64,000 nt of DNA from a virus (Duplodnaviria > Caudoviricetes): positions 224,001 to 288,000 of IMG/VR virus record IMGVR_UViG_3300047469_000103; one strand, 5' to 3'. Both the position numbers and the translations under genes were made by a program. Under the pieces are notes generated by a model. It did no database searches and was not told the origin of the DNA. It saw only the letters and a list, made by a program, of their open reading frames with translations. Of this stretch, positions 6,437 through 44,862 are shown piece after piece. Position 1 is the first letter of the stretch. Each line of letters starts with the position of its first letter.

Positions 6437-6472
6437 AAAAAACCCGCCAATCCAATGAGGAAAGGCGGGTTT
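6437..6472 (-). terminator. intrinsic terminator with 2x2 internal loop
   Basis: CCCGCC/GGCGGG stem plus TCC/GGA apical stem; U6 tract on the minus strand downstream of 6475..6981. Confidence 0.85.
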
Positions 6473-6474
6473 GA

Positions 6475-6981
6475 TTAACCGAACAGATTCACAAGGCGCA
6501 TGAAATCGGTCATACGGTCATAGTTTTCTTCAGGTGTTTCGTAAGCGATCCACGCCCGACGCATTGCGCCAAGATGTTGTGTCGCCAACGCTGGAACGCC
6601 GAGCCGTGTATAGACTTGCCAATTAATCGGCAATTCGTAAACGGATTCTGTGCCGCCAGAAAGTACCACCTTCACTGGATGCTCAGGACGTGCATCAACA
6701 AATCCAATAAAGCGCGGATTGTCTTTCCACATCAACAGACTGACTTCTGTATCGGGCACTTCAACGGTTGTGATTGGCATGGTTAGCCCATCAATCCGTG
6801 CGCCTTCCATTTCGCCAGAACCTAATCCAAAATAACCCATGAAATCCGATGATGCGTGACCGGCCACAAGCTCTTTAAAGTTTGTGGTCAGCAAGTGGTA
6901 ATTATGCCCACGCAATTTCAGATATGCGTAATGCAGATGGATTTCACTCTTGTGCATCGTCGTCTGCTTCCGATTCTTCAA
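6475..6981 (-). CDS. hypothetical protein
   Basis: 168 aa ORF followed by a terminator; start uncertain. Confidence 0.7.
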   Translation of the reverse strand: MKNRKQTTMHKSEIHLHYAYLKLRGHNYHLLTTNFKELVAGHASSDFMGYFGLGSGEMEGARIDGLTMPITTVEVPDTEVSLLMWKDNPRFIGFVDARPEHPVKVVLSGGTESVYELPINWQVYTRLGVPALATQHLGAMRRAWIAYETPEENYDRMTDFMRLVNLFG

Positions 6982-7339
6982 CCGGCTGCGCTTTCACTGG
7001 AGTTTGCACGTTTTGTTTCGGCGTTTGAACTGGGGCAGAAACTGGTGCCGGTGCTTTTGCTTTCACTTGAGTGCGCAGCAATTCAGCCGCTTGCTCAGGG
7101 GAAAGTTTGCGATGGTTAACCAGTTTTTTATCCCAATACATTCCCTTCGGAAGTTTGGCAGTCGTGCCGAATGGCAGACCGTTGGTTGGAACGCCGGGGC
7201 AGAAAGAATCATCGCGCTCAAAAGCTTTCATCGCGAGGATACTGTCGGTACTCCAAATCCCGTCAATTGGCCCTTTGTAAAAGCCAAGAAACGCGAGGAC
7301 TAACTGTTGTGCGCTTAACTCGATTTGACTTGTTTGCAT
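6944..7339 (-). CDS. peptidoglycan-binding domain protein
   Basis: QQLVLAFLGFYKGPIDGIWSTDSILAMKAFE matches PG_binding_1 (Q..L..LG...G..DG.....T..A...FQ); GGAG SD before ATG 7339. Confidence 0.75.
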   Translation of the reverse strand: MQTSQIELSAQQLVLAFLGFYKGPIDGIWSTDSILAMKAFERDDSFCPGVPTNGLPFGTTAKLPKGMYWDKKLVNHRKLSPEQAAELLRTQVKAKAPAPVSAPVQTPKQNVQTPVKAQPVEESEADDDAQE

Positions 7340-7547
7340 TTCTTTTCTCCAAAATCCAATGCCCAGTTCGATCATCCCACACATGGTTGGGGCCGGGTGG
7401 GCCTGCAAGCGGATGCGTGCGACCATTTAAAATGTGCGCAGGAATATAATCGGGGCCGGGAATTCCCGGTTGACCTTCAGGGCCAGTTGGTAAACCCGCC
7501 CAATAACGCGCCGGGCCGTCGTCACCTTCATATCGCGGATTACACAT
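7263..7547 (-). CDS. small Gly/Pro-rich protein with short collagen-like triplets
   Basis: GGAG SD before ATG 7547; GPEGQPGIPGP and GPPGP; overlaps the next gene by 77 nt. Confidence 0.6.
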   Translation of the reverse strand: MCNPRYEGDDGPARYWAGLPTGPEGQPGIPGPDYIPAHILNGRTHPLAGPPGPNHVWDDRTGHWILEKRNANKSNRVKRTTVSPRVSWLLQRAN

Positions 7548-7588
7548 TTAATTCTCCCAAAAGAGTGGCCTTCCTTGGCCTTTATCTC

Positions 7589-10500
7589 TTACTTGGTTTT
7601 CTTGTAGCGGAACTTCAGTTCGGCCAATTCTTTCAGGGCCGCAGCTTTGTTCACCACAGTGTAACCAGCCTTGCCGACTTTCGAAATCATGTCTTTAAGG
7701 TCGGTTTTGTTTTTACCGAAGAACAACCACTGGCCTTCGCTCTTCTGCCACTTCACACCGGCGCCGGTAATCGTTTTGCCAATGTGTTTAACAATCGCAG
7801 GGTTAGTGCGAATATCAACACAGAGCATTACGTGGTCTTCCATGAAAATCGGGAAGACGCGAATTGCACGGCGGTTGCTGGTGACACGTTTGCCAACGCT
7901 GAAGAATGCAGGCAGTTCCGAGACTGGAGCAAGCTCCAAGCTGTACCACAATTTATGCGTATTTTTCAAACCCGGCTCGAAAGCAGCGTTGATTTCCTGA
8001 ATCAAATCAACCGTCTTATCAGGAAGGTCGAAGTTCGAATCAAGATACTCGTAAATTGCGTGGAATTTCTTCTTGTTGGAAACGGTAACAAACGCGTAAC
8101 TCGGAGTCCATTGGAAGCCAAGGGATTTCAAGTTTACATCGCCTTCGTCGAATTCCGCTTCCAGCGTTGCGAAGCCGTGGTAATAAGCAGGCGACAACCA
8201 CACGTCGAGGTCAGAATCCACTGGAACGATTCGGCCAATATCCGGCTCTGCATCATCTGTCGCAATAACCTTTTTGCCGGTCGGTGCGATTTTGATAACA
8301 GCGTCTTTGACCTTGTAAATACCATCGTTGAGCGGTTTGCCTTTCGCTTCGTTGTCCTTGCGCTTCTCGCCGTCGGCCTGTTCCTTCTTGATAATGCCGA
8401 TGGTTTCTTTTTGCTGGCGCTCACGAATACGACGTTCTTTTTCTTCCTGCTCTTCTTGCGCCTTCTGCTGTTTCTCCAAACGCTTATCGCGTGCTTCTTG
8501 GCGCTTCTCTTCGGTGTCCGTACCAGCCGTCGAAACATCGAAATATTTCGATTCTTGGTCGGGAGTAATGTTTTCCATCGCGACGTAGCACATGTTCGGC
8601 TGAATCGTCACACGGGAAGGCATGCCAGCCGGTGGATTTTTCAGATTCACAATCAGCGACGACAAACGTTTACCGCCGTCTTTCTTGTTGAAGCCTACGA
8701 TTTTGCCAGTGCCCCATTCGGTCAACACAGGTTTCTTCGACAGGTGTTCAACGAAATCATTTGCGATCTTTTCATCACGCAGCAGAATTTCAACGTTGGT
8801 AAGTTTCCATTTGTTCGGGTCAGCCACAGGCATGTTCGGAACGAATGGGCGAACGTCCATTTGTCTTGCGCCCGCAACGTTTGGCGATGCTTCGATAGGC
8901 AGCAGTTTCGCTTCCTGTTCTGCACGCATGTCGCGGAATTCTTTGTTTTCGATTTCGTTCAGTTCTTCGTAACTTTCGCGCATGCCACGGAACGGTTCAT
9001 CGTTCAAACCTTTGATGTTCTTCAGCATGTCGATACCGAGCGACAGTGCAGCGTTTTCACGCTCTGTCGGAACTTTACGACGTGTCAGCATTTCTTTGTA
9101 GCGTGGGTTATCGGCTTCAGTGAAACGAGCGATACCGAAAGTTTTGGAAATTACACGCGCCTGTTTCGGCACTTCCATTGTGTTGTTTGCCAGTACCCAA
9201 TCGAGATAAATAACATCCCGAGTCATTTCGCCTTCGCCTTTGGCGGCTGCGATTGCACCCTTTGGATCAGGGCGGAAAATACGGGCGTTTGTTTGGTTAA
9301 GCGCACCCGGCCCCCACGGCGATTCCGCACGGATAATTCGGCTTGCCATTTGCAGGTTGTGCCCTTCAGACATACCCTGTTCGTTAGCAATCAGAATCTG
9401 CACGCGGTCGTCGGTTTTAAAGTCGTTAAACGATTTGACTTTATCCGGTTCGTCACCCGTGAATTTCACGGCTTTTTGCTTGTAGTTTTCTGGCAGTGCA
9501 TCAAAGATTGCCGAGGCACTGTGATTGTAGCGAGTGATAATAATCAGCTTGCCACGTGGTTCTTTTTTCCAGTAGTCCGGGTTTTCTTCTGGCGAAGTAT
9601 TCAGTTGGTCACGTGGCAGGGCCATGTGTTCCGCACTGGAGTGATATTTCTTCGCGACGTACAAATCTTTTCCAACAGAAACCAAATCGTATTCGGTGTA
9701 CTGCTGGCCGCGACGCCATGCCGGAGTGTTGAAGTGCAGGTGTACGAGGTTGGCAATGTATTTCGCTTTACGCGATTTAAACACTGCGCCTTTACCGAAA
9801 ACTTCTTCGTAGGCTTCGTCGTATTGCGGGGCGATAATCAGACGTTCAAAACGTGCAAGGTTCTTTTCCCAAAGTGCCTGTTTGATTTTCTCGCCAGCAA
9901 AGTCAGCATCGTTGTCGATCAAACCAACGCCGCCGCCACCTTCGTTTTCTTCTTGGCTACCGTGTTCGCCTTCGCCTTCTTCGTCGTAGTCGTGGTCTGC
10001 TGCATCTTCCGCTTTCTTTTTCTGAGCCAGCAAAGGCTTCAAATCTTCCAGCGTTTTATCCAGTACCAATTTGTACAACTGTTCGTGCAGTTTTTGCTGC
10101 TCGATTTCTTCCAGAGAAGTACCGTCGTTACCGTCTTTATCCACCAGTGCAATTGCGTGGAAAGTTTCGATTGGTGCAGGAAGCATGAACGCCCATTCTT
10201 TACGCTTTTTCACGATGAACGCGGTGTAGTGGGAAAGCTTATCCACTGCGCGTTTGCCGTTGAGAGGCGTGTAGGTGGCAACAACACGATCACCGATTTT
10301 TACATCGGAACCGGAGGCTTCTGCATCGGAACGAATATTCGCAATTTCACCAGCACGGAAAACGTGCGGAGTTTTCAGAGCGATTTGACCTTCGATATCT
10401 TTCGCACGGTCAGGCATGATTGTACCGGTGAGGATACGCAGCCATTTAACCATCGTCGAAGTGGTCAGGATTTTTGTTGCACGGTGACGCGCAGAGTTGA

Positions 10501-13500
10501 AAGATTTCAGGTTGTGCGATTCGTCGATTGCGATGTAGTTGCAACCGAGGCGGCGAATGAATTCCAAGTTAGCCGAGAAATTCACTTGCGCGTTACCGAT
10601 ACACACGCGTTTGTTACGGCCCTGAATGAACGTCATGGAAGCGATGAAAATTGTGTTCGGCGGCGCAGCAGTTGCCACTTCCAGCAAACGTTTTTCACCC
10701 CAACGTTTCATCACGTCAGCGGACAACGGGAACGGGTTCCAGTTTTCACCAACGAAATATTTCATGTCTTCGCACCACTGGTTAATCAGACCATTCGGGC
10801 AGATTACCAACGGCTTAACAACGGTGCCAGCTTCCAGCATGTCTTTGACCATACAGGTCATGTCGATCACGCCTTGGCCGGTTTTACCACCACCCGGATC
10901 AAGTGCGAGAATTGCGAAAGAAGGCGGAACTTTTTTACGCAGATACGATTGCACAGACGCTTGGTGCGGGAACACTGCACGCGGAGAATCTGTAACCATG
11001 CCGGGAACCTTAATATCTTCCGAAGAAAAAGATTCATCAGGGCGAATAGATTCAACCTGTTCGTCTGCTTCTGCGAAAATGGTTTCCTGATTTGGTGCGT
11101 ACTTGCCGAGCATGGTTGTGAACGGCAGAACGTCGTGCATGATGCGACGGTTATTCAGCTTCGGAATATCCAGCTTATATTCAACGTCTGGATTGTTCGG
11201 GTTTTGACCTACAGCAATTTGCAGTCGGCCGCCGCGCTCGTTGAAATAATCACCAGCAGGAATTGCGTTGATCGCGTCCAGAATTTGCTTGAATACTTGA
11301 CCGCCGAAGTAATTGTACAGCTTGGCGAAATCAGCAGTGGTCGAAGTCGAAGCGTTGAAATAGTTCGGATGCGCAGACAGTTCTTCCTGTACTTCAAAAC
11401 TTTTCGGACTGTAATCGTCAGTGCGCATATCGTTGAACGTTTCCGTCCACAATTGCGAACCTTGTTCACCCGATGCTTGAGTCATGGCCGCGCCGAGAAT
11501 CGACGAAATAGCGCGTTTGGTCATGCTCACTTGCGAAGCTTTGAACGAGCCGTCTTCGTTGAAATATTCGAAATACGTCGTCGAATAATCGTGACCTTTT
11601 TCGGTCGGAAGTTTCTCGTAGCCCAGCGCACGGATTGCAGCCTTGGCAATTGCTTCCAGCTTCGGCGCTTTGTTATCGGCGTATGCCAGCTTCAAATACA
11701 CGTCAACAATATCAGTTACGATATCGCTGTTTGCAAATGTCGATGCGGCAGTTTTCGAACCGTAGGCACGTTCCGATTTATAACCGATTTCACTGAGGTT
11801 TTGATATTTGGTCAGCACCCACATTGTCGATGCGAAATTCCGCACCATCGGTTTTTCACCTTCTTTCGAAAGGTTGTAACCGAGATAATCCGCGATGGAA
11901 AGCGAATCGGGAGTAACCGAACCAACGTCAACACGGGTAGTCGCGGAACCGGGCATATCGCCCGCAGTCATGGTGATACCGAAGTCCCAATCATAACCGA
12001 TAATGCAACCATCAAAACTTTTCAGTTCTGTCATCAAATCATTCAGACGTTGAACGTCGTGCATGTCGATGTGCGGCCATTTCTCAGGACGCGGGTCGCC
12101 GTTGAAACCAGCGATTGGAATATCGTTACGGTCGAGAATTTCCAGAATTTCTTCGGAAACTTTTTCGTAGTCATTCGCCAGCGTCGAGTTTTTGAAGGAC
12201 TCGATATCAGGTCGAACAGCCATCGTCCCGTTCGGACGAATGTACATGTTTTCCGAGTTGCCTTTGGTTTTCTCGACAACGAAACCGTGCTGTGTACGAA
12301 TATCCGAAATCTTTTTCAGCGTGGAAGCACCCATCGAATAACGAGGGATGTTTACCATTTTGATTGCACGTTCGTTGCTGTACGACGGAACGCCTTTACG
12401 GGTTGCCGCAACTTTCGCACGAATTACTTGACCGATGTAAACCGAGAACCACGCGTTGGTGCGGCTCAGGTTTGGACGCTCGCTGTCTTCGGTCTGGCTG
12501 ACGTAATGCGCAATGTCAGATTCCAAAGTAAAGCGAATCGAAGTCCGCAAAACGAGGTTCATCAATTCAGCTTCAGGTGCGAGTTTTGCAGTGCCACTAT
12601 TCAGAATGGTTTCGACCATCGAATTGTTGGCAGCAGCTTCACCCATGCGGGCCTGATTGCGTGCATCAGCAGCAGCTTCAACAGCTTTTTCCGAAGGCAT
12701 TTTCATAACTTCAACTTGCAGGAATTGTTCCGCAAGGTGATTGGTTACGTCCATATCCGTGATGATGGATTTCGGCAGTTTAAAACCGGTGTGCTTTGTC
12801 CAGATATCTTCAATGTCGGTGAACTTGGTATTTACCGACAGGCCACGGTGCATCACACGTTCGGAAATTGCAGCAGAACCGAACAGGAAAATCGTGATTT
12901 CTTTTGCAGCGGCCAGAATGTTTTCACCGAACGGAGACTGCCAGCGACCGCGACGATGCGATTCAACGAAATAATGTTGAGCGCCATTGTTCGCGAGCAA
13001 ATCACCTTGGCCCATGTTCGCATCATCCGTACCGAAATACGGTGCAGGTACATGGTCTGCACGAACGTCGGTGCCGGTGCCATTCAGCACGATATCAATA
13101 CCGTTGTTGTAACGCTTCGAACGATAGATATTGTGGAAAGCAGATTGCGACATACGAATTGCGCGGAGGAAACCAACAACTGCGCTTTTTACGGATGCTT
13201 CGTCACGCTTGCGCTGCATGGTGTCGTAGAACAAACGCTCTACACGATCCTTTGCAGCCTGTTCGTCCATACCCGAAATGTAGTTCGCGTCAGCCATGCA
13301 CGCGCGCATGAAACGGAAAAACAAGTTGATATTCGACGTTACGTCACTGAGGGATTCCAGAATTGCCACGAGGAATTGACGATCACTCGGGTAAAAGAAA
13401 CCTTCATATTCCGCATTGCGATCCGACTCAAGATTTACCGGTCGAATCGAACGGACAAATTCCGACTCTTCGTTGGCTTCGTCTTCTTCGTCGTCAGCAC

Positions 13501-13606
13501 TTGCACGAGCGATTGCGAGTTCGTCCGCATATTCCTGTTCGTAAGCAGCGTGAAGACGCATTGCTTCTGTGATGGAATTTTCACGCCACACAATTTGTCG
13601 ATTCAT
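7589..13606 (-). CDS. giant SNF2-family (SF2) ATPase/helicase
   Basis: Motif I LALDPGGGKT, II IAIDESH, III ILTGT, V/VI EGHNLQ...QTNARIFR; start set at ATG 13606 (ATGA overlap with upstream stop). Confidence 0.9.
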   Translation of the reverse strand: MNRQIVWRENSITEAMRLHAAYEQEYADELAIARASADDEEDEANEESEFVRSIRPVNLESDRNAEYEGFFYPSDRQFLVAILESLSDVTSNINLFFRFMRACMADANYISGMDEQAAKDRVERLFYDTMQRKRDEASVKSAVVGFLRAIRMSQSAFHNIYRSKRYNNGIDIVLNGTGTDVRADHVPAPYFGTDDANMGQGDLLANNGAQHYFVESHRRGRWQSPFGENILAAAKEITIFLFGSAAISERVMHRGLSVNTKFTDIEDIWTKHTGFKLPKSIITDMDVTNHLAEQFLQVEVMKMPSEKAVEAAADARNQARMGEAAANNSMVETILNSGTAKLAPEAELMNLVLRTSIRFTLESDIAHYVSQTEDSERPNLSRTNAWFSVYIGQVIRAKVAATRKGVPSYSNERAIKMVNIPRYSMGASTLKKISDIRTQHGFVVEKTKGNSENMYIRPNGTMAVRPDIESFKNSTLANDYEKVSEEILEILDRNDIPIAGFNGDPRPEKWPHIDMHDVQRLNDLMTELKSFDGCIIGYDWDFGITMTAGDMPGSATTRVDVGSVTPDSLSIADYLGYNLSKEGEKPMVRNFASTMWVLTKYQNLSEIGYKSERAYGSKTAASTFANSDIVTDIVDVYLKLAYADNKAPKLEAIAKAAIRALGYEKLPTEKGHDYSTTYFEYFNEDGSFKASQVSMTKRAISSILGAAMTQASGEQGSQLWTETFNDMRTDDYSPKSFEVQEELSAHPNYFNASTSTTADFAKLYNYFGGQVFKQILDAINAIPAGDYFNERGGRLQIAVGQNPNNPDVEYKLDIPKLNNRRIMHDVLPFTTMLGKYAPNQETIFAEADEQVESIRPDESFSSEDIKVPGMVTDSPRAVFPHQASVQSYLRKKVPPSFAILALDPGGGKTGQGVIDMTCMVKDMLEAGTVVKPLVICPNGLINQWCEDMKYFVGENWNPFPLSADVMKRWGEKRLLEVATAAPPNTIFIASMTFIQGRNKRVCIGNAQVNFSANLEFIRRLGCNYIAIDESHNLKSFNSARHRATKILTTSTMVKWLRILTGTIMPDRAKDIEGQIALKTPHVFRAGEIANIRSDAEASGSDVKIGDRVVATYTPLNGKRAVDKLSHYTAFIVKKRKEWAFMLPAPIETFHAIALVDKDGNDGTSLEEIEQQKLHEQLYKLVLDKTLEDLKPLLAQKKKAEDAADHDYDEEGEGEHGSQEENEGGGGVGLIDNDADFAGEKIKQALWEKNLARFERLIIAPQYDEAYEEVFGKGAVFKSRKAKYIANLVHLHFNTPAWRRGQQYTEYDLVSVGKDLYVAKKYHSSAEHMALPRDQLNTSPEENPDYWKKEPRGKLIIITRYNHSASAIFDALPENYKQKAVKFTGDEPDKVKSFNDFKTDDRVQILIANEQGMSEGHNLQMASRIIRAESPWGPGALNQTNARIFRPDPKGAIAAAKGEGEMTRDVIYLDWVLANNTMEVPKQARVISKTFGIARFTEADNPRYKEMLTRRKVPTERENAALSLGIDMLKNIKGLNDEPFRGMRESYEELNEIENKEFRDMRAEQEAKLLPIEASPNVAGARQMDVRPFVPNMPVADPNKWKLTNVEILLRDEKIANDFVEHLSKKPVLTEWGTGKIVGFNKKDGGKRLSSLIVNLKNPPAGMPSRVTIQPNMCYVAMENITPDQESKYFDVSTAGTDTEEKRQEARDKRLEKQQKAQEEQEEKERRIRERQQKETIGIIKKEQADGEKRKDNEAKGKPLNDGIYKVKDAVIKIAPTGKKVIATDDAEPDIGRIVPVDSDLDVWLSPAYYHGFATLEAEFDEGDVNLKSLGFQWTPSYAFVTVSNKKKFHAIYEYLDSNFDLPDKTVDLIQEINAAFEPGLKNTHKLWYSLELAPVSELPAFFSVGKRVTSNRRAIRVFPIFMEDHVMLCVDIRTNPAIVKHIGKTITGAGVKWQKSEGQWLFFGKNKTDLKDMISKVGKAGYTVVNKAAALKELAELKFRYKKTK

Positions 13607-14019
13607 TCTGAAACCTCGTCGAGTTCCCCATCGCACTGAATAACAGCGGCCCACAGTGGGTTGGGTTCTTGTTTCTGGTCAACAGCGCAACGCATCAGCG
13701 CTTGGCAAAGGGCTACACGAATAAATGGATCGGGTTCATCCAGTAATGTCGTGCGGTGATAGTAATCGTACAGATTGAAATAAATCTGTTTGGAAAGCGG
13801 CTCGTACAAATCATCAACCGCTTTCTTCATATCGAAGGTAGGCTGTTTACGATCCGGCAAATAGGATGAATATTCTTGATCGGCCAAATCTTGAATATCG
13901 TTGCGGGCGACGTTCGCAAGGTCTTGGATTGCCTGTAGCTTTGTGGCCGGGTCGGCATCACCTTTGCTGATAACCGCCAGAATGGAATTCAACCCATTCA
14001 ACGCGCTTTGAACTGTCAT
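13603..14019 (-). CDS. hypothetical protein
   Basis: ATG 14019 overlaps upstream TGA; MTVQSALN... Confidence 0.7.
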   Translation of the reverse strand: MTVQSALNGLNSILAVISKGDADPATKLQAIQDLANVARNDIQDLADQEYSSYLPDRKQPTFDMKKAVDDLYEPLSKQIYFNLYDYYHRTTLLDEPDPFIRVALCQALMRCAVDQKQEPNPLWAAVIQCDGELDEVSE

Positions 14020-18896: not shown

Positions 18897-20096
18897 TTAA
18901 TCCTTGAGGGTCAAGCTGTAGGTATGCACGCCCGGATCAATGGTGCGCAGAGTCGGCGTGTATTCTTTATTCAGCATGCGTTTAATCGACGGAATTGCGC
19001 CCATCACACGCAGAACTTGAGCCTGAATTTCCCGATCATTATCAGGATATTCGATTGTCACTTCGGTGCTGTCAACGTTAACGCCGGTAACGCCTTCGAT
19101 TGCAGAAAGACGCGTGGTAACTTCGGTGGCGTCGAGGTCGAGTTCTACCGGGGCGGCGAACGCTACAACGTCAGCGACTGCGAATTTACGCGGCATTACT
19201 TTGTCGAGTTCTTTTGCGAGTGCAGCAGTGTCGTTTCCTTTCAGTTCGGAACCGATGGAATACAAACCCGGCAGACCGACTTTATCGTGGATCGAAACAT
19301 ACGCTTTCATTTCGAATGCGTCGTCGGTTGGCGTCAGGCGTGCGGTAACAACCACAACCTTTGCACGACCAACAACACCGGCTGCGGGCCAGTGGCTGAT
19401 ATCGCAGTTCAACACGAAATCCATCACGTCGTTTTTGATACCGACGTTAATGTAATAATCCAGTTCGGCATCGCTGAAATACGGAGGATCAATTTTCGCT
19501 TTCTTCGCTGCTTCAATTGCGGCGTCACGAGCTTTGATGTAATCCGCATCCAGACCATCGAAGTATTTCTGCACGCGTTTAAACAAATCACCAACGGCGT
19601 CCGGCATGTGATTGTCGGCAACGTCAGACATGTTTTGCAGCGATTCAGTGTAGGCGTCGATCAGTGCATCACGCTCGCGATTCAAATTCGGCACGAGTTT
19701 ATTCAGGCTTTTGTTTTCCGATTCGGAAAAACGTTCGATCATCGCTTCCAGTTCGTCGATTGCTTGGCGAGAATCCAAACCGTCGATGTACTGTTTCAGA
19801 ACACGCGGGCCGGGAGTATCGACCTTTTGAACGATCAGACCAAAGCCAGCGTTTTTACCGCCTTTTTGTCCGCTGGTTTTTGTGTTCGTGCCTTTGCGAC
19901 CGGACACGTCTGCAATAACGTCTTGATCCGATGCGGTGGCGAGGTTTTTCTTACCGAATACTTTTCCTTTGAAAAGTTTCATCAGACTGGTGAACTTGGA
20001 AATCAGACGACGATACGCAGGCTTGCGTTTGTTGTAATATTTCAACAACTGTTCGTCGGTCATCTTTTTGAGGAAGGCAACGTTCTGTTTGCTCAT
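18897..20096 (-). CDS. hypothetical protein, possibly virion-associated
   Basis: 399 aa; coupled to neighbours. Confidence 0.7.
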   Translation of the reverse strand: MSKQNVAFLKKMTDEQLLKYYNKRKPAYRRLISKFTSLMKLFKGKVFGKKNLATASDQDVIADVSGRKGTNTKTSGQKGGKNAGFGLIVQKVDTPGPRVLKQYIDGLDSRQAIDELEAMIERFSESENKSLNKLVPNLNRERDALIDAYTESLQNMSDVADNHMPDAVGDLFKRVQKYFDGLDADYIKARDAAIEAAKKAKIDPPYFSDAELDYYINVGIKNDVMDFVLNCDISHWPAAGVVGRAKVVVVTARLTPTDDAFEMKAYVSIHDKVGLPGLYSIGSELKGNDTAALAKELDKVMPRKFAVADVVAFAAPVELDLDATEVTTRLSAIEGVTGVNVDSTEVTIEYPDNDREIQAQVLRVMGAIPSIKRMLNKEYTPTLRTIDPGVHTYSLTLKD

Positions 20097-21109
20097 GATG
20101 GTTCCATAATTGTGTTGAGTTTTACTTTTTCATCCTTGCTGACATTCAAGATTTTAGTCAGCTTACTCAGCGAGCGCGCATCATAGATTTTGCGCTTGCC
20201 GACGATGAACGAAATCATCCGGTTTTCACCGTACTGCGAGACGCGATGAATAATGTCAGTGTTTGGCAAATTCACAGCGCGCTTCAGATACGGGAGAACT
20301 TGAGCAAGGAATTTGTTAATGTCGTCAGGCTGCACAAAAGGTTTGAGAATAACGTTCAATTTATCGTCCGTTACTTCTACGTTCTGCACCATCTTTGACG
20401 CCAGCAGCGAATCGTCTTTCGGCTCGGGTTTACCCACGTATTCGAAATCAGACAGATTGCCCATGATGTAGGTTTGCACGTCTTTTGCAGTGTCCACATT
20501 GGACTCTTCGGACGATACAAAAGGCGAGTCAGGAATAGACACGCGGTATTGCCCACCCATAAGCGAAAGCTTTACGGTGATTGGGCCAGAAACAAAACCG
20601 TTTTTATCCGTCACGCCATGATCTGTCCGAAAACAAATCATTTGATATTCAGGCAGACGAATATGCAGTTGCGTCGTCGGGCTGATACGCGAAAGAATGC
20701 GGTACACGGTTTCGGAAAGATACGACAAATGTTTATCCATACGGGATGCACATACGCCGTCGATCAAATCCATTACGGTCTTTTGAAACGACCGGATGTT
20801 TGTTTGCTGCGCGTTAATCATATTGAAACAACGATCACGCTTTGAATCGGAAAACTCTTGTGCGACCGAACGGGCGCAGCGCAATTCAACCAACGAATCA
20901 ACGCAAAATTGTAAGGCTTCCACGGCGTCCGACACTTTCAAATATGGAAGCTTTTTCTGATTGAACTTCGATACCAAAACGCTAAAAGTCGTATTAATCT
21001 TTGACAATACGGTAATGACTTCATTCGCGTTTCGGGCGTTCTTTAAATCAATGACATTTGGATTGTCATCAATATACTTTGATTGTATTTGCAATGCTCG
21101 AACACCCAA
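20093..21109 (-). CDS. hypothetical protein, possible paralog of 18897..20096
   Basis: 338 aa; TTG start; similar domain order to the downstream gene. Confidence 0.65.
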   Translation of the reverse strand: MGVRALQIQSKYIDDNPNVIDLKNARNANEVITVLSKINTTFSVLVSKFNQKKLPYLKVSDAVEALQFCVDSLVELRCARSVAQEFSDSKRDRCFNMINAQQTNIRSFQKTVMDLIDGVCASRMDKHLSYLSETVYRILSRISPTTQLHIRLPEYQMICFRTDHGVTDKNGFVSGPITVKLSLMGGQYRVSIPDSPFVSSEESNVDTAKDVQTYIMGNLSDFEYVGKPEPKDDSLLASKMVQNVEVTDDKLNVILKPFVQPDDINKFLAQVLPYLKRAVNLPNTDIIHRVSQYGENRMISFIVGKRKIYDARSLSKLTKILNVSKDEKVKLNTIMEPS

Positions 21110-21146: not shown

Positions 21147-21187
21147 AAAAAACCCGCCGATCCACTAGGGAAGGGCGGGTTTCTTTT
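21147..21187 (-). terminator. intrinsic terminator with 2x2 internal loop
   Basis: CCCGCC-ga-TCC-actag-GGA-ag-GGCGGG; U6 tract on the minus strand after the histone-like gene. Confidence 0.85.
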
Positions 21188-21210: not shown

Positions 21211-22647
21211 TTAACCGAACGAAGCTTTTTTGTTACCGGACTTCTTCGGAACAGCGCCACCTTTCGGTTTAGAGGCTGCTTTCGGAGCGGCCTTTGGAGC
21301 GGCCTTTGGAGCGGCTGCTTTTTTCACAGCGGCTTTAGTACCGGCTTTACCCGGTGCAGTTTTACCGGCTGGGGCTTTCAACGAAGTTTTGCTACCGTTG
21401 GAAGTTTTCTTGGCCGGTGCGGCTGCTTCGGTTTTTGGCTTGGCTGGACGGCCACGCTTTTTCGGAGCGGCTGCGGCTGGTGCGGCTTCGGTTTTTGGCT
21501 TGGCTGGACGGCCACGCTTTTTAGCCGGTGCTGCTGGTGCTGCGTCAGCTTTTGGTTTTGCAGGACGACCGCGTTTTTTGGCTGGAGCGGCTGGAGCAGC
21601 AGCTTCAGTTTTTGGTTTCGCTGGACGACCACGTTTTTTCGCTACTGGAGCCGGTGCAGCAGCTTCAGTTTTTGGCTTGGCCGGACGACCGCGCTTTTTA
21701 GCGGCTGGAGCAGCAGCCGGGGCGGCAGCTTCAGTTTTTGGTTTTGCAGGACGACCGCGTTTTTTCGCAACTGGGGCCGGAGCGGCATCAGCTTTTGGTT
21801 TTGCAGGGCGACCGCGTTTTTTCGCTACTGGTGCAACTGGGGCAGCATCAGCTTTTGGCTTGGCTGGACGGCCACGCTTTTTGGCAGGTGCAGCTTCAGC
21901 GGCTGGGGCAGCAGCAGGGACTTTACGAGCTTTTTTCACAGCACCGCCGGTTTTGCCGAAGTGCTTAGTCGAAATAGCCGAAGTTTCTTTTGCAGCAGCT
22001 ACTTTCGCAGCAGCGGCTTTCTTCGGATCAATCGTTTTCAGACGCTTGCCTTTCTTGGAGATTGGCTTGGCGCTGAAATTGCCGATGAAGTCTTTCAGGC
22101 GGAAAACACCACGCTTGGCAGAAGCAGCTTTGATTTTGCCGAGAGTTTTCTGGTGAGTTTTCACCGCTTTCATACGCTCGCCAGCCAGAGTCTTACGCTC
22201 GGAAGCGTAACGTTGCTTTTCAGCAGCGCGCATTTTCATACGAACGGCTGGGGCAACCTTGGCGGTACGGATTTTCATCAGTGCCTTTTTGTGGGCGCTG
22301 GAAACGGCTTGCGATTTTGCTTTCAGTTGGCCGCGAACGGATTTCTGAGCAGTAACAGCCTGACGTTTCTGTTCGGAAGCGTGCTTACCAGCGTGGCGCA
22401 TTTTGCGGTTCTTTTTGTAGGCCGCAACAGCTTTTTTCGCTTCAGCTTCGGTAGCACCGTGACGCATGGCGCGAAGGAATACCACGTTTTCCAAGTGCGC
22501 CAGTTTTTCACCGTGCGACATGGTTTTGTAGCGGTTCTTCGACGCCTTGTTCAGCTTCGATTTGTTTTTGTTGCGGTATTGTTTGGCCTTTTTGGCGGCG
22601 ATGCGCGCCTCGGGGCTTTTGTCCTTACGGACGACTTTCGTGACCAT
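21211..22647 (-). CDS. histone H1/HMGA-like basic DNA-binding protein with eight AT-hook repeats
   Basis: K/A/P-rich 478 aa; eight KKRGRPAKPK units (AT-hook core RGRP). Confidence 0.85.
   Translation of the reverse strand: MVTKVVRKDKSPEARIAAKKAKQYRNKNKSKLNKASKNRYKTMSHGEKLAHLENVVFLRAMRHGATEAEAKKAVAAYKKNRKMRHAGKHASEQKRQAVTAQKSVRGQLKAKSQAVSSAHKKALMKIRTAKVAPAVRMKMRAAEKQRYASERKTLAGERMKAVKTHQKTLGKIKAASAKRGVFRLKDFIGNFSAKPISKKGKRLKTIDPKKAAAAKVAAAKETSAISTKHFGKTGGAVKKARKVPAAAPAAEAAPAKKRGRPAKPKADAAPVAPVAKKRGRPAKPKADAAPAPVAKKRGRPAKPKTEAAAPAAAPAAKKRGRPAKPKTEAAAPAPVAKKRGRPAKPKTEAAAPAAPAKKRGRPAKPKADAAPAAPAKKRGRPAKPKTEAAPAAAAPKKRGRPAKPKTEAAAPAKKTSNGSKTSLKAPAGKTAPGKAGTKAAVKKAAAPKAAPKAAPKAASKPKGGAVPKKSGNKKASFG
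21420..21885 (-). repeat. coding tandem repeat, 8 x ~57-66 nt encoding (A)KKRGRPAKPK(TE/AD)AA(A)P
   Basis: Repeated ttttggctt/tttggtttt...ggacgaccgcg/ggacggccacg units with synonymous differences; boundaries approximate. Confidence 0.9.
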
Positions 22648-22743: not shown

Positions 22744-23793
22744 TCACGAGGCCGAAATGCCCAGCCGGGCACAAGCCTTTTTAACTTCTTTTCGACCGGC
22801 TTTAATCATTTCTTTATCAAAGCCTTCTGCCACCATGAACTCTTTTAAACCAAACATTGGATCAATATCAATGTTTTCCACTTTAATTGATTCATCTTCG
22901 GAAACATTCGATTTTTTCGCACCAGCTTTATGAATGCCACCGGTAATGTTTGGGTATTGAATCATCAGGTCGGCTGGAATAGGAACGTCTTCAGCTACGT
23001 GCAGCTTGTAACGAACGTTATCTGCATAAACCAGTTTCTTGTAATCATTGAGGTCATTAATCTCAACGTTCTGCAAAGTAAAGTTTGGTTTGTTTTCAAC
23101 GAACTTATGTTGGAATGCAACCCGGTTTCCATCCATGCTGGCTTTAAAATGAATAAAGCCTTTTGGCAATGCTTCACCAAAGTTTTTCTGGAATGGATTA
23201 CCGCAATAAACGGCCCGCTTTGCTTTCATGAATTGGTATTGGTGAATATGCCCGGAAATAGTGAAATCGTTTTTGTGGGTTTCCAATTCATGTTTGGTTT
23301 TCAATGAACGACCATTGTCACCAATTGCGCCGCTGTATTCAACGTGCGCAAAGTTTAATGCACCCTGTTTAGTGGACAGGGTTTTCAGGCATGGATACGG
23401 CAGGAAATTCACCGGTACGTTTTCGATTACAACGCGTTCCGGTTTCAGGATGATTTTCAGACGCTTAAACGCTTTCGACGTTGCCAGCTTGTGCATGAAA
23501 TTCATCGACGTATTTTCGATATCACCGAAGTCATGGTTGCCCATGATGTAATACGTGTAAAGGTTTTCATCGTGACGCAAAAACAAATCGTACAGCTTGC
23601 CGTAGGTATCCCAATCGAGGTCAGGTGTATCAGACAAATCGCCGGGAATAAATACGTGTTTAATACCGTTGCTATACGCGTACTGATAAATCTTTTCCAT
23701 TTCCGCCAAGATGCGATCATTTGCATCGGGGAAATGTTTGTTCAAACCGTCAAGGTGAACGTCAGAAAATGCAATGCCTTCAAGATCAGCCAC
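22744..23793 (-). CDS. sbcD: SbcD/Mre11-like metallophosphoesterase nuclease
   Basis: FSDVHL, IPGDLSD, MGNHD, GHIHQ, YCGNP. Confidence 0.9.
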   Translation of the reverse strand: MADLEGIAFSDVHLDGLNKHFPDANDRILAEMEKIYQYAYSNGIKHVFIPGDLSDTPDLDWDTYGKLYDLFLRHDENLYTYYIMGNHDFGDIENTSMNFMHKLATSKAFKRLKIILKPERVVIENVPVNFLPYPCLKTLSTKQGALNFAHVEYSGAIGDNGRSLKTKHELETHKNDFTISGHIHQYQFMKAKRAVYCGNPFQKNFGEALPKGFIHFKASMDGNRVAFQHKFVENKPNFTLQNVEINDLNDYKKLVYADNVRYKLHVAEDVPIPADLMIQYPNITGGIHKAGAKKSNVSEDESIKVENIDIDPMFGLKEFMVAEGFDKEMIKAGRKEVKKACARLGISAS

Positions 23794-34500: not shown

Positions 34501-34510
34501 TATTTACAGT
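34501..34510 (-). promoter_or_regulatory. ACTGTAAATA candidate phage promoter element
   Basis: 27 nt upstream of the dnaX ATG; identical to the site upstream of polA. Confidence 0.5.
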
Positions 34511-37982: not shown

Positions 37983-38008
37983 GATCGTTCCTTAACGTGG
38001 CTCTGTTC

Positions 38009-38953: not shown

Positions 38954-39555
38954 TCATAAATGCGGCGGTAAGCCGGGGCGGGGGTTTGGTGCGCGGGTGA
39001 TTGAAGGGAAGGGGGCGAGCGGAATGGGGGATGGGATGCGCTTCGCGCTTTTTAACGTGCCGAAGGTCTATTATTTGTGCATACAAATAACGCGGACAGA
39101 GCTATCCTTAAAAGATTGCACATTCATCGCTCAATGCAAACGCATGCAGTGGATTAATTCTGTTTTGTTTGGCTGGCTGGTAAATGTGCCGGTTTCTTTT
39201 TCAACTGTGTTCCTACGGAACCAGTCTCTGTCGCTGCGCTCCGAGCCTGTTTCGCTTCGCTTCTCTCGCTGCGCTCGCCAGAGCAACACGAGAATCAATC
39301 CGTTCCTAAACTCAATCACCGCAAACAATCATGGCTCGACGAAGCAGTCTCGATCCGTTCCAAACCAAATAATCATTTTGTTCTGTCACTCAATATTCCG
39401 CAACGAGTACACAAGCCACCCTTTACAGTTTTCAAAAGGACACATTTTAGACCGAAAAACATTCCATACAATAACCATTTGTTTCAATCATTCAAATAAA
39501 AGTCGAATAAAAGGCAATAAAAAAGGGAACCGCAATGGCTCCCTTTAGGTGTACG
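38954..39555. other. 600-bp gene-free region, candidate replication origin or regulatory locus
   Basis: Largest non-coding gap in the window; G-run cluster, GNA mini-hairpins, inverted and direct repeats, A-rich right end. Confidence 0.45.
39518..39545 (-). terminator. intrinsic terminator
   Basis: Minus strand GGGAGCC-attgc-GGTTCCC followed by a U tract, downstream of 39556..40338. Confidence 0.75.
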
Positions 39556-40907: not shown

Positions 40908-40908
40908 A

Positions 40909-41388
40909 TTAATCCCTCAAAGAATATGCGAATTGAATTGTGCCGCCGTGTGGCGAACCGCTGATGATCCGGCCTACGCCAATCGCAAACAAATCCTGCG
41001 ATGCGTTGATTATCGGCGTCCACGATTCAATTTCCATCGGTGACAAAGTAATCTTGGATTGTGGCGGACAATCAAACGACAAATAAATGCAACGTGAAGC
41101 CATCACCACGCGCACCAGTTCTTCGTGACCTTCCCACGCTTTCATTTCTTTCACCCGCAAGAATTCTTGCAGGATGATATTGCGAATGGTGGCAGTGCCA
41201 ATGCTCAAGGCACGATCCAAATCGAAATTCAACCAGCCTTTCGAATTGTTAATGATTTCGCCAAGGGTGTGACCACGGAAAACCGCCAGTGACTCAGGTT
41301 CGTTTTTAACGGAAATGGAATTGGCAGTAATAATCGGTGGCACATCGTCGTCGTGCAAATACAACCGCATTACTTGGAGTTCTTTCAT
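40909..41388 (-). CDS. hypothetical protein
   Basis: 159 aa; ATGA coupled. Confidence 0.7.
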   Translation of the reverse strand: MKELQVMRLYLHDDDVPPIITANSISVKNEPESLAVFRGHTLGEIINNSKGWLNFDLDRALSIGTATIRNIILQEFLRVKEMKAWEGHEELVRVVMASRCIYLSFDCPPQSKITLSPMEIESWTPIINASQDLFAIGVGRIISGSPHGGTIQFAYSLRD

Positions 41389-42485
41389 CGCAACTTATAT
41401 CCCTTGGCAATATTTCTTAGAGGTTCTGTCGGTTGCAGCACACGCGTAGAGCAAACCCATTCAAGCCGGGCCTGATCCTGCATAATCTTCCGTTCTTTAT
41501 CGCGGATTTTCAGATAGAGATTTCGTTCGGGAATACAAACGATATCGCCTTCGTTTACTTCGGAAACTTCCGGGCCGAGAACGATTGGAATATCGCTCAT
41601 GGTTTGCAGCCGGTCATAATCCAGCGTGGTCGTTTCACCACCGATGTTCGCGTTAATTCGCTGGATACCCAAATCGAATTCAAACAGCACATGCGTAAAG
41701 CGTGAGGCATGCACATAAAAATCAATTGTTGTACCGGCGTGCTGGCGTAGGTCTTCAATCGTTAATGCTTTGCCATCCTTGCGACACGGGCGATCACGCA
41801 GAATGAAAAGGTCTTCACGCACACTGTAGGTTGCCGAATTGAAATACTTCGGCACCAGCAATTTGAAACACACGTAAGCGTCTGCGATTTCTTTTACAAA
41901 CGCATGCGGTGCGCTTGTGGAATCGACATGGAAACCGTCGATGTTTTCGATATCGTAATTGGTAAACAGACGACGCTGCAAACCGTAAGCCTGATAACCC
42001 GGCTGACGCAATGAGCGATAGCAAATTCCGCAATTGATACTGCCTTGCGAAACGCCATCTTGATAATCGTCTTCGTCGTCGGCAAATGTGGTGACGGCAA
42101 CGAGTCCTTCATTGGAATCAGCACGACCGCCGCTGACCTGCACGACAACATCATCATTCATGATTTTCTGACTGAAATCAGAACCGAACAAATCGTCGTC
42201 TTGCATTTCAATATCAATCGTATCGGTCACACGATCTTTATGCGGAATCACTGGCGCTTCAGTCGAACCGGGATGAATCGGCACGTTTGTTTTTGAACAG
42301 GTACAAGGCCGACCAACCAAACGTTCGACCTGATAAAGAATAATGCCCACCGCGTTAACGGCAAGGCTGTTGGAAACCTGATTGTTATACGCCGCAACTG
42401 TTTCATCCATTCGGGCTTGCGCCTGTTTGTGGATAATGTTTCTGGCGTGAACACGCTTGTTGTTTGACGGGCCACGTTTAATCAT
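41385..42485 (-). CDS. putative head-closure/neck protein with CxC...CxxC zinc motif
   Basis: RPCTCS...NCGICY...PGY and terminal beta strands resemble large-myovirus head-closure proteins; GGAGG SD. Confidence 0.5.
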   Translation of the reverse strand: MIKRGPSNNKRVHARNIIHKQAQARMDETVAAYNNQVSNSLAVNAVGIILYQVERLVGRPCTCSKTNVPIHPGSTEAPVIPHKDRVTDTIDIEMQDDDLFGSDFSQKIMNDDVVVQVSGGRADSNEGLVAVTTFADDEDDYQDGVSQGSINCGICYRSLRQPGYQAYGLQRRLFTNYDIENIDGFHVDSTSAPHAFVKEIADAYVCFKLLVPKYFNSATYSVREDLFILRDRPCRKDGKALTIEDLRQHAGTTIDFYVHASRFTHVLFEFDLGIQRINANIGGETTTLDYDRLQTMSDIPIVLGPEVSEVNEGDIVCIPERNLYLKIRDKERKIMQDQARLEWVCSTRVLQPTEPLRNIAKGYKLR

Positions 42486-42571
42486 TTTTGATACCTCCGT
42501 TCCCTATAAATTACGCCTGAAAAAGTGAGATTGCGGATAGTAATTCAGTAGTATGCTCAAGGAGATTCAAG

Positions 42572-43219
42572 ATGGCCCGGCGTAAAAGCAAAAAGAAAGT
42601 GCAGGTAAGCAGCGCCCCGCAATTGGTATTCAAACGCAAGAAGCTGAAACGCAAGTATCCCAATTCGGTAATCGTTACCGGGCAAGATATGGGAACAAAG
42701 AACTACGCAGTAACGCAGATTGAAGCGTGGATTAAAGACGGGCGTTTCCGTTTCCGTGTGTTGGGTTCGAAAATGATGGTGAACCTAATCCATGACGTGA
42801 AAGTTGCGCAAAACGAATGCGCTTTGTTCGTCGAAGAATACAAACGTTTACCTGAAGCAGATTACATTGCAGCGGAACGGTATCAATCCCGGCCCGGTGG
42901 CTCCACTGGTTCAACCGTCGAAGCTATCTCGATGATGTTGGGCGCGATGATGCTAATTCATCCAGATACACCAATCGAATATTACACAGCGGCGACGTGG
43001 AAGAACGCTTTCAACGGAACGCAAGCTGATTTGAAATCAATGTACGAAGATTTGAAAGAATACAAAGCCTTCGGAATTGTGATTCACCAACTCGATTCGT
43101 TCTTCATTGCGCTTTATCACGCAGCGAAAATGTTGGGTGTCAAACCATTCGATTTCATTGAAAGTTTCAAAGACGAAGAACGCCTTTTCAAAGTTCTTTG
43201 CGATGCACCGACCTTATAA
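42572..43219 (+). CDS. ruvC: RuvC-like Holliday junction resolvase
   Basis: VTGQDMGTKNYA (catalytic D), IAAERYQ (E), HQLDSFFIALY (D); AAGGAG SD. Confidence 0.85.
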   Translation: MARRKSKKKVQVSSAPQLVFKRKKLKRKYPNSVIVTGQDMGTKNYAVTQIEAWIKDGRFRFRVLGSKMMVNLIHDVKVAQNECALFVEEYKRLPEADYIAAERYQSRPGGSTGSTVEAISMMLGAMMLIHPDTPIEYYTAATWKNAFNGTQADLKSMYEDLKEYKAFGIVIHQLDSFFIALYHAAKMLGVKPFDFIESFKDEERLFKVLCDAPTL

Positions 43220-43231
43220 ATAATGTAAATA
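43215..43231 (+). promoter_or_regulatory. TATAAATA/TGTAAATA tandem, candidate promoter
   Basis: TATAAATA at 43215-43222 equals the T4 late -10 consensus; TGTAAATA at 43224-43231. Confidence 0.4.
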
Positions 43232-43266
43232 AAGGGGGTATTTTACAGAAACCTCCGAGGTCATTT

Positions 43267-43683
43267 ATGCAATCTGATAAAGGGTTTACCGTTACAACCG
43301 ATACCCCTCTCCGACGTAGCGATTTCGCAGTCGAAGGGGATTTCCTGCCGACGATTTTGAGCCGCGCCTTCTACGTTTCGTATGAAGTTGAACGCCGCTT
43401 TGAAGCTGATCGCCAGCGTCCGCACACCGTAATCGTTTCGTTCATGGAAACTGCAAACAACATTGCAGATTTGAACGCCATTACATTCGGTCAAGTGTCG
43501 CCAGAAAATCTGATCCTGATTACCAAAACCAAATCTGGCCGCGTTGTTTCTAAACGGACTTTTTCCAGTCTGCGTTTGAAGACAGCCGGTGCCAGCTACG
43601 CAATGCACGGCGACCACGAGGTTCCGTTGCAACGTTTTGTTTTTGACTGCTACATGTCAGACGCGGAATTTCCGAAGTCTTGA
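43267..43683 (+). CDS. possible tail-tube (T4 gp19-like) fold protein
   Basis: GAGG SD then ATG 43267; LILITKTKSGRVVSKRTFSSL...VPLQRFVFDC resembles the tube-fold pattern; tentative. Confidence 0.45.
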   Translation: MQSDKGFTVTTDTPLRRSDFAVEGDFLPTILSRAFYVSYEVERRFEADRQRPHTVIVSFMETANNIADLNAITFGQVSPENLILITKTKSGRVVSKRTFSSLRLKTAGASYAMHGDHEVPLQRFVFDCYMSDAEFPKS

Positions 43684-44180
43684 AAAGCAAGCAATGCCCC
43701 CTGCTGGATACCTATCGTTTCAAATCGCAATGCCGTGTAGAAACCTGCAAATACTACACGGAAAAAACTGCGAACAAGTGCATGGCACTCGATACGGTAT
43801 TTTCGTCCACGGACAAGGGCACGACTGACGCGGAGTTACGGCTACTGAAATTGCCGGAGCATTCGAAGCGAGAAGTTTTTGTAGTGCGAAAAGAAGCACT
43901 GGAAAACGTACAGGCCGTTATGGCTTTGTACCGAGCGGTGAGAGTTTGCCGCGAAGAAAAAGACAGTGACGTTTTCCCTGAAGAAAACACAGTCACGCAA
44001 AAAGTTGTGTCGCATCCTCTGTTCAAAGATTCCGATATCGGGATGGAAGAGTGGATGTTGCCTTACCTGTTTGATCCGAAATTCATGTCGAAATTCGGCA
44101 ACCCGAAAATTCACACCCTGTTCGATGTTTCCGATAAGGAAATGGAACAAGCCTACCCTAGCCTCGGAGAAAAGAAATGA
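43680..44180 (+). CDS. hypothetical protein with Cys-rich N-terminus
   Basis: CP...C...C...C spacing; coupled to neighbours. Confidence 0.65.
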   Translation: MKSKQCPLLDTYRFKSQCRVETCKYYTEKTANKCMALDTVFSSTDKGTTDAELRLLKLPEHSKREVFVVRKEALENVQAVMALYRAVRVCREEKDSDVFPEENTVTQKVVSHPLFKDSDIGMEEWMLPYLFDPKFMSKFGNPKIHTLFDVSDKEMEQAYPSLGEKK

Positions 44181-44806
44181 CTGCTCAAAGTTCGAATAAA
44201 GCCCTGATGCGCAAACTGACCGTGCCTGAAGCCCTCAAGCGCGACGACCTGTGCCTTTACGTGATGAACATCGTAAAACCGGGCGGCAATATCAACCTGA
44301 CTGCAAAAGGCGAAGACGGCCAAATGCAATCGGTTGTAATTCCGAAAACTTTTATCCCGGTTGACATGACTCTGTTCATCAACCGCGCAAACCTGCTGAA
44401 TAACCAGATTTTCCGTCAACTGGTTGTCCGTGGCGACGTGGTAATTGTTCACCCGGACGATGCTGAAAAAGCAATCGAAGCCCACCCGAACGCGAAGAAA
44501 GAACAGAAGCGAATTCTGTCGTCGAATACCGACTACGACGTGGCCGGTGGCGCTGCTGGTAACAGCGGTTATATCGAAATGAAAGACACCGGCGGTTCGC
44601 TGCAACAGCGCGTTGAATCCGATGCTTCCAACATTTCGCCATTCGCTGCCGGTATCGTGAGCCGTGCCGCTTCCGAAGACGTGGCCGATTTGATGATGGA
44701 TATCGAAGCCAACCGCGACACACTCAGCACCGACGATCTGGAATTCATCGCGACCAACGTTGAAGACGCTACCCTGAAGCAATTCATCGTAGATCAACTG
44801 GCGTAA
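44177..44806 (+). CDS. hypothetical protein
   Basis: 209 aa; GGAG SD; followed by a terminator. Confidence 0.75.
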   Translation: MTAQSSNKALMRKLTVPEALKRDDLCLYVMNIVKPGGNINLTAKGEDGQMQSVVIPKTFIPVDMTLFINRANLLNNQIFRQLVVRGDVVIVHPDDAEKAIEAHPNAKKEQKRILSSNTDYDVAGGAAGNSGYIEMKDTGGSLQQRVESDASNISPFAAGIVSRAASEDVADLMMDIEANRDTLSTDDLEFIATNVEDATLKQFIVDQLA

Positions 44807-44820
44807 TGTTTTTCTGAAGC

Positions 44821-44862
44821 AAAAAAAAGGCCGCAATCCAATTAAGGAAAGCGGCCTTTTTT
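44821..44862. terminator. bidirectional intrinsic terminator with 2x2 internal loop
   Basis: A8-GGCCGC-aa-TCC-aattaa-GGA-aa-GCGGCC-T6 between convergent genes. Confidence 0.9.

Follow-up and report, generated by a model that had tools for sequence, protein, structure and literature searches.

Three RNA hairpins in a 64,000-nucleotide stretch of the viral record IMGVR_UViG_3300047469_000103 (Caudoviricetes; positions 224,001 to 288,000 of the record, hereafter the window) belong to a real family under selection. The family design consists of a G+C-rich basal stem of 6-7 bp, a tandem U.U mismatch (rarely C.U), an upper stem of UCC/GGA, a variable loop that is rich in U (4-6 nucleotides, nt) and a U5-8 tract. 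We favour, at slightly better than even odds, the view that these hairpins are intrinsic terminators of the ordinary kind with a lineage-specific design, which would be inherited, occasionally copied and kept under purifying selection, with the U.U mismatch acting as a hinge or stability cap.

Source of the window and genomes compared

The polA region of the window showed 75% DNA identity to Pseudomonas phage Lu11 (280 kb), and other stretches also matched phage HRDY3 (314 kb) and, more weakly, phage PaBG. Judged by this similarity, the window is part of a Lu11-like jumbo phage. The relatives used were G001, a 139.6 kb sibling contig that was collinear with the window (87-92% DNA identity), Lu11 itself (G002), a 312 kb contig (G003), HRDY3 (W01) and a 51 kb fragment (G004). 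PaBG (G005) was also used.

The available portion of the PaBG paper reports a phage sigma-70-like factor for the group that contains PaBG (PMC7412058), and the word "terminator" occurs 0 times in that portion. For the relatives, a phage-encoded sigma factor is reported and a phage polymerase core is not described; we infer that the enzyme meeting these hairpins is the host RNA polymerase. The Lu11 annotation contained no terminator features in the five stretches that we inspected.

Three hairpins in the window share a mismatched interior

Terminator 1 (6437..6472, minus strand) is composed of a CCCGCC/GGCGGG outer stem, a UU/UU 2x2 internal loop, the UCC/GGA stem, a 5-nt loop and a T6 run. Terminator 2 (21147..21182, minus strand) has the same outer stem with a CU/UC internal loop, UCC/GGA, a 5-nt loop and T6. 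Terminator 3 (44821..44862, minus strand) has a GGCCGC/GCGGCC stem plus an A6/T6 extension, a UU/UU internal loop, UCC/GGA, a 6-nt loop and T8. An earlier, sequence-only reading of the window had described this anatomy, and we observed an exact match upon reading the minus strand (6472-6437, 21182-21147 and 44862-44821).

RNA folding returned the described structure as both the minimum free energy and the centroid structure at sites 1, 2 and 3. Fold energies were −21.3, −19.0 and −24.3 kcal/mol, respectively (z = −6.3, −3.9 and −6.0 versus shuffled sequences). All three sites had three features of intrinsic terminators, namely a stable G+C-rich hairpin, a U-tract directly 3' of the stem and an end-of-unit position after a stop codon. 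The hairpins started a few to ~25 nt past the stops of the open reading frames (ORFs) 6475-6981, 21211-22647 and 44870-45157 (on the plus strand, 44177-44806). Canonical intrinsic terminators are alike in all of this: a G+C-rich hairpin and then a U-tract, a few bases after the stop codon. A simple terminator scanner overlooked all three sites because their stems are interrupted.

Site 3 also folded when read on the plus strand, where it reads AA/AA, carries a T6 tail and lies between convergent genes. Terminator 3 is therefore probably bidirectional, and it resembles canonical terminators at convergent genes, which an upstream A-tract makes bidirectional. An Rfam search of the window returned 0 families at gathering score. 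Among the matches listed for contigs from four close DNA runs, positions 6437-6472 were unchanged, which is uninformative at ~0.5% divergence.

Because one window offers only a small number of sites, the likeness could be a chance resemblance of three unrelated terminators. A regular-expression scan of both strands of the window found exactly 3 sites when the outer arm was at least 6 bp. In 300 first-order Markov copies of the window, in which dinucleotide content was kept, the mean was 0.007 sites and the maximum was 1. Chance is refuted by this simulation and by the relatives described below, and we give it practically no weight.

The hairpin family is spread across Lu11-like genomes

We scanned genomes for a degenerate form of the inner module, flanked at either end by two S bases, and used the same pattern read backwards as the control. 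Pattern and control counts in Lu11-like genomes were 7 and 0 (Lu11), 7 and 1 (HRDY3), 5 and 0 (G003), 4 and 1 (G001), and 4 and 0 (each of G010 and G011). The PaBG-like genomes gave 2 and 1 (PaBG) and 0 and 2 (G006). A covariance model (R1) built from 13 members (alignment A2) was then searched against 1.52 Mb of sequence. Distinct places with E < 1e-3 numbered 3 in the window, 4 in G001, 5 in Lu11, 7 in G003, 6 in HRDY3 and 2 in G004, and PaBG had none even at E up to 1.

The family accounted for only part of the candidate terminators. Among intergenic places with a hairpin and a T-run, the strict motif was present at 3/8 in the window, 4/17 in G001, 4/33 in Lu11, 2/32 in G003 and 4/40 in HRDY3; these fractions are rough, as the ORF-based census was crude, counted weak hairpins, and overlooked 48428 as well as two members in G003. 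The same census in PaBG found the strict motif at 0/19 places and no 2x2 loops. A further scan was based on the architecture alone, defined as a G+C arm of 6 bp, a 2x2 loop that does not pair, an upper stem of 3-4 bp and a T-rich tail. Nearly all matches in Lu11-like genomes had TT/TT with TCC/GGA, and the two matches in PaBG did not.

Every Lu11-like genome examined contained further copies and showed orthologous conservation. Together with the covariance-model scan, this establishes a genuine class rather than a coincidence, as the sequence-only reading had proposed. Its alternative suggestion of a dispersed repeat was right in part, in that non-orthologous sites carry the module on five or more types of outer stem. 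Canonical terminators have no common module, whereas the Lu11-like family has a fixed U.U plus UCC/GGA interior at non-orthologous sites, and this interior is better kept than the basal stem.

The tandem U.U is kept at orthologous sites

We compared the sites across genomes. At site 1, upstream of polA, a UU-type 2x2 loop was present in 7/7 informative Lu11-like loci, which had five different loops. The outer stems at these loci were CCCGCC, GCCCTCG and, in HRDY3, GCCCCCA. Lu11 carries a variant at this site (UCUC/GGGA with UU/CU), the more distant G004 has CC/GG only, and PaBG-like phages have a plain UUCG-loop hairpin at 9/9 loci.

Site 3, on the primase side, kept the module in 5/5 genomes mapped, with unrelated loops. 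In the relative G015 the module stands on a covarying outer stem, and HRDY3 has a flipped interior. Behind the endolysin gene, a further site had the module in 3/3 genomes (Lu11, HRDY3 and G003), and in all three the endolysin transcript carries UU.

Site 2 was labile. Its interior is inverted in Lu11, reading AA/AA on the transcript although both flanking genes lie on that strand, and HRDY3 and G003 have closed stems there. Beside the gp041 orthologue, G001 has the full motif, G003 has UU/UU with a fully covaried AGC/GCU, and HRDY3 has a closed stem with G.U pairs; the Lu11 counterpart of this member is found one gene further, after gp040. At window 48428, Lu11 107939 and G003 29428 the U.U is combined with different upper stems. 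Because the U.U persists where the upper stem differs, the tandem U.U ~6-7 bp above the base is the most persistent feature of the family. UCC/GGA is its usual and not an obligatory partner.

Selection acts on the mismatch

Selection was assessed in a 25-member alignment (A4), which was aligned by covariance model and is hence biased towards structure. A MAFFT alignment (A1) misplaced four members with the GGCCGC outer stem and was unused. In A4, 246/246 cells paired and 4/7 outer pairs showed double changes. The inner pairs were nearly invariant (UA 23/25, CG 24/25, CG 22/23). The four mismatch columns were T in 22, 23, 23 and 22 of the 25 members, and the last loop base (the U before GGA) was T in 20/22; the remaining loop columns were mixed.

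The window and G001 differ at 8-13% of their sequence, yet their three hairpins are identical, loops included, and no insertion or deletion (indel) was present at any of the three sites. Among more distant genomes the loops were scrambled, so neutral positions are saturated, and the U's are therefore held by selection. Pairing the U's would strengthen the hairpin, and selection thus acts to keep them unpaired or as U.U. These data point to purifying selection on the mismatches. At a given site, the UU orientation exceeded the AA orientation in stability by 2.1-2.7 kcal/mol, which explains the usual presence of UU on the transcript without a special factor.

Selection could also act on the DNA. 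In a speculative version of this idea, T.T would keep the palindrome imperfect and so avoid a cruciform or single-stranded DNA hairpin that is cut by a phage resolvase, by SbcCD/Mre11-type nucleases or by host nucleases, and U.U would still stack in the RNA. A closed loop would give perfect arms of 17 bp at bidirectional sites, A/T extensions counted. A Holliday junction resolvase and an SbcD-like nuclease are annotated in relatives, and the window ORF 22744-23793 is a metallophosphoesterase. The outer stems contain G.U pairs, which pair in RNA only, and interior inversions, which are expected of quasi-palindromes, were seen twice. However, the same genomes contain perfect 10-bp hairpins, and perfect 12-bp arms remain at site 3. 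Palindromes this short are not known to pose a problem. We consider this explanation very unlikely.

The module recurs outside the Lu11-like clade

We searched the IMG/VR database for the exact subtype with a 7-nt arm and found 30 loci, of which 30/30 had a complementary 5' arm and a T-run. Eighteen of these were in Lu11-like contigs, and 12 represented one orthologous site in roseophage-like contigs. A hairpin of the same design (L199:11898-11933, minus strand) in ~40 kb CRP-6-like roseophage contigs has a 7-bp G+C arm, UU/UU, UCC/GGA, a 6-nt loop and T6; further roseophage-like loci are L120, L124, L126, L131-L133, L136, L138, L139, L141, L143 and L146. Horizontal transfer together with a neighbouring gene was considered and rejected, as the four ORFs around the roseophage-like hairpin had no homologue in Lu11-like genomes.

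Across 185,579 bacterial and archaeal genomes the exact subtype gave 36 matches, and a complementary arm or T-run was present in 0/36. We rejected a host origin of the hairpin on this basis: none of the 36 bacterial and archaeal matches to the one exact subtype scanned was a true hairpin, so the hairpin was not borrowed from the host.

We then compared the module with five control modules in IMG/VR, using exact patterns in which each module was placed on a 6-base G/C arm and followed by TTTT. UU-UCC/GGA-UU gave 45 matches, 35 true hairpins and 22 distinct sequences. The closed form UUUCC/GGAAA gave 31 matches and 3 true hairpins (3 distinct sequences), and the closed form AAUCC/GGAUU gave 17 matches and 7 true hairpins, all with 5/6 arm pairs (4 distinct sequences). 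UU combined with other upper stems gave 12 matches and 5 true hairpins for CCU/AGG (4 distinct sequences), 30 matches and 5 true hairpins for GCC/GGC (4 distinct sequences), and 18 matches and 6 true hairpins for UGG/CCA (5 distinct sequences). Counted by lineage, the excess of UU-UCC/GGA-UU over the controls was only about two- to five-fold.

The 35 true hairpins comprised 11 from Lu11-like sequences, 15 from one AT-rich virus group and 9 from ~8 further sequence classes. In the AT-rich group the inner module stands on C6/G6 arms (L204-L206, L210, L211, L213, L215, L222, L226, L231-L233, L237, L239 and L243). A 2 kb stretch of an AT-rich contig (L291) had no match among 50,697 phage records.

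Candidate binding proteins and mobile partners

The sequence-only reading had proposed that the hairpins are a regulated class recognised by a phage antiterminator or RNA-binding protein. More broadly, the U.U/UCC-GGA module could be bound by a phage or host RNA-binding protein that tunes read-through or RNA decay. Such a binder could stabilise the 3' end, assist termination as NusA does, or be an antiterminator. Several observations are consistent with this. The module is sequence-specific, and its conservation exceeds that of the outer stem and of the loop and extends to the U that precedes GGA (20/22). The internal loop stays open though closing would stabilise the hairpin. The module is also several times commoner than control modules in unrelated viral contigs, and it is absent from PaBG-like relatives.

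Against recognition by such a protein, the orientation of the module on the transcript is not fixed, as it is inverted at Lu11 site 2, where the flanking genes are on the same strand, and flipped at HRDY3 site 3. The module is closed or lost at three orthologous sites. We found no homologues of CsrA, ProQ/FinO or Hfq in 4 Lu11-like genomes. A phage-specific factor would not be common to phages of unrelated hosts, and polA is preceded, behind site 1, by a promoter motif of its own. The proposed antiterminator or RNA-binding-protein target is thus not supported, given the missing CsrA, ProQ/FinO and Hfq homologues and the inverted or closed modules, and we regard a protein-bound, regulated class as unlikely.

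A sub-threshold Hfq-like match was present in PaBG (L343; 68272-68385, plus strand), within a 165-amino-acid (aa) open frame, and it scored 18.1 bits (cut-off 27).

Protein-bound regulatory hairpins near terminators include lambda boxB/N, RAT/LicT-BglG and the CsrA GGA hairpins. Like the Lu11-like hairpins, these are small, with non-Watson-Crick features and a conserved GGA. In contrast to them, the GGA of the Lu11-like family is paired instead of looped out, the terminator consists of the hairpin itself and not of an alternative structure, and the orientation is not strict.

REP elements are short imperfect palindromes with a conserved mismatch. They are intergenic, occur in both orientations, often act as terminators or mRNA stabilisers, and have RAYT (Y1 transposase) partners. 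The Lu11-like hairpins share with them the character of dispersed imperfect palindromes with a conserved mismatch. Unlike a REP/RAYT system, the Lu11-like family has 3-7 copies per genome and no Y1 transposase gene in 4 Lu11-like genomes, and one exact subtype of it is absent from 185,579 bacterial genomes. A REP/RAYT element was therefore rejected (Y1 transposase PF01797 in 0/4 Lu11-like genomes; controls matched in 6/14). No description of the hairpin family was found in the literature searched.

Genes and promoter-like motifs around the sites

The family A DNA polymerase gene (polA; 3341..6409, minus strand; PF00476, E = 1.1e-43) lies downstream of terminator 1. The stop of a 168-aa ORF without a Pfam family (6475..6981, minus strand) is 2 nt before this terminator. 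Terminator 2 is flanked by two minus-strand ORFs, 21211-22647 and 20093-21109. The primase gene (45453-46538) and the small ORFs 45154-45456 and 44870-45157 form a minus-strand block (44870..46538) whose transcript would end at terminator 3, and a convergent 209-aa ORF (44177..44806, plus strand) ends 15 nt before terminator 3.

A fourth, related terminator is found on the plus strand (48425..48465, hairpin 48428-48459), with a CCGCA/UGCGG outer stem, a UU/UU 2x2 loop, a CAGA/UCUG upper stem and T6. A hairpin of the same design, with nearly the same outer stem, UU/UU and another upper stem, stands at Lu11 107939 and is a possible orthologue of window 48428. The sequence-only reading had overlooked this fourth UU/UU terminator; its description of the other window terminators as plain hairpins needs this correction, and a second one at ~61635, which has a 1x1 A.C mismatch.

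A promoter-like motif, AAAACTGTAAATA (6414..6427, minus strand), lies between terminator 1 and the polA start, and the Lu11 annotation labels it a "putative middle/late promoter". The promoter-like core ACTGTAAA also occurs at 48475..48482 (plus strand), 16 nt behind the fourth terminator. The window contains 16 copies of the core versus 2 expected (e.g. 6416-6423 minus, 34503-34510 minus, 46541-46548 plus and 48475-48482 plus). We observed the core between the hairpin and the polA start in 16/16 informative relatives, PaBG-like phages included. The position of site 1 directly upstream of polA, given by the sequence-only reading, was correct. Its suggestion that read-through would control polymerase expression is weakened by the conserved promoter-like motif between the two, as polA need not depend on read-through.

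Up to 46586 the copies of ACTGTAAA lie on the minus strand, apart from one plus-strand copy at 46541, and those from 48475 onwards lie on the plus strand. Many fall within the 3' ends of upstream ORFs. In the clade terminators (window, G001, Lu11, G003 and HRDY3), with or without the motif, the T-run is often followed by CGT(T), e.g. T5-6 and CGTT.

Reuse of a terminator, at some sites together with a promoter-like motif, recalls the PeSL and PmSL promoter-terminator cassettes of T4-type phages, which were reportedly described by Arbiol et al. in 2010. PeSLs are composite units of an early promoter and a stem-loop, found mainly in hyperplastic regions and where closely related genomes differ by indels (Comeau et al. 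2014, PMC4122927). The Lu11-like family is alike in reusing a stem-loop terminator across the large genome of a lytic phage, at some sites with a promoter-like motif behind it, and some copies stand beside variable small ORFs. The hairpins could be mobile or recombination cassettes that provide short homology for gene insertion, loss or swap, with their similarity arising from copying or gene conversion.

Consistent with this, the polA site has different outer-stem types per lineage, as if swapped for another family member, and in HRDY3 two members 350 nt apart flank an orphan 91-aa ORF. A member in Lu11 and G001 stands beside a gp039-like accessory gene and a promoter motif, and is placed differently relative to the gp040 orthologue. 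The small ORFs between primase and terminator 3 vary between genomes, and the ACTGTAAA motif stands behind site 1 and the fourth terminator. However, 2/3 window sites (sites 2 and 3) have no promoter motif, and the motif that is present is of the Lu11 "middle/late" type, unlike that of PeSLs. The common stretch is only ~10-27 nt. Also unlike PeSLs, most copies are at conserved orthologous positions in the core (polA, primase and endolysin), and the close pair of window and G001 is collinear, with no indel and hence no breakpoint at the three sites. We consider a cassette decidedly unlikely.

We noted further features near the sites. The gene at 7589-13654 (minus strand; 2021 aa) is the orthologue of Lu11 gp100, annotated as a DNA helicase. 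A 2104-aa ORF (7325-13639, plus strand) runs antisense to it, so that both strands are open for ~6 kb; a stop-free antisense frame of this length is unusual. ORF 21211-22647 (minus strand) contains short tandem-like repeats at 21270-21940, and its G003 orthologue reads as a repeat protein rich in Lys, Ala and Pro. Within 21270-21940, stretches of 60 and 95 bases are skipped by contigs of close strains, so repeat number differs between strains. In run X3, a short metagenome contig matched the site 1 hairpin only (6433-6472), with unlike sequence on both sides. A hairpin resembling site 1 may be present in another genome of that sample.

Discussion

We favour ordinary intrinsic terminators of a lineage-specific design. 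Under this reading, the RNA hairpin and U-tract would stop the host RNA polymerase in a factor-independent manner. The design would be inherited at fixed genome positions of Lu11-like jumbo phages and would also have spread to new ones, and the common inner module would reflect identity by descent, kept by purifying selection. The 3-bp upper stem would tolerate no single change, and the U.U, 6-7 bp up from the hairpin base, would be retained because it serves as a stability cap or as a hinge without Watson-Crick pairing. A dedicated phage factor would not be required. We infer both that transcription terminates at these sites and the reason for which the mismatch is selected.

Two results weigh against this reading. 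Closing the internal loop should stabilise the hairpin, yet we observed only three closings (HRDY3 site 2, G003 site 2 and HRDY3 248260). Stability alone therefore leaves the open loop unexplained, and some further constraint exists. The second is the recurrence of the module outside the clade, which hints that it is more widely favoured and possibly recognised. The module (G+C stem, tandem U.U, UCC/GGA and the U preceding GGA) might be read by a conserved bacterial component of transcription or RNA decay, or by convergent phage proteins; the hairpins would then be phage-specific tunable terminators or 3'-end protectors, absent from bacterial chromosomes. We think this quite unlikely. If true, the module class would span Lu11-like jumbo phages, roseophage-like podophages and the AT-rich virus group.

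Terminators are usually treated as interchangeable hairpins, and some of those in the Lu11-like clade retain an exact non-Watson-Crick interior. Should the mismatch determine how efficiently transcription terminates, how far this depends on NusA or how stable the RNA is, it would be a natural, compact handle for terminator tuning, and in the same case it would be a marker for annotating the transcription units of Lu11-like jumbo phages. If it is merely an inherited design, the family would be a clean example of how a regulatory hairpin evolves by compensatory changes, flips and closures.

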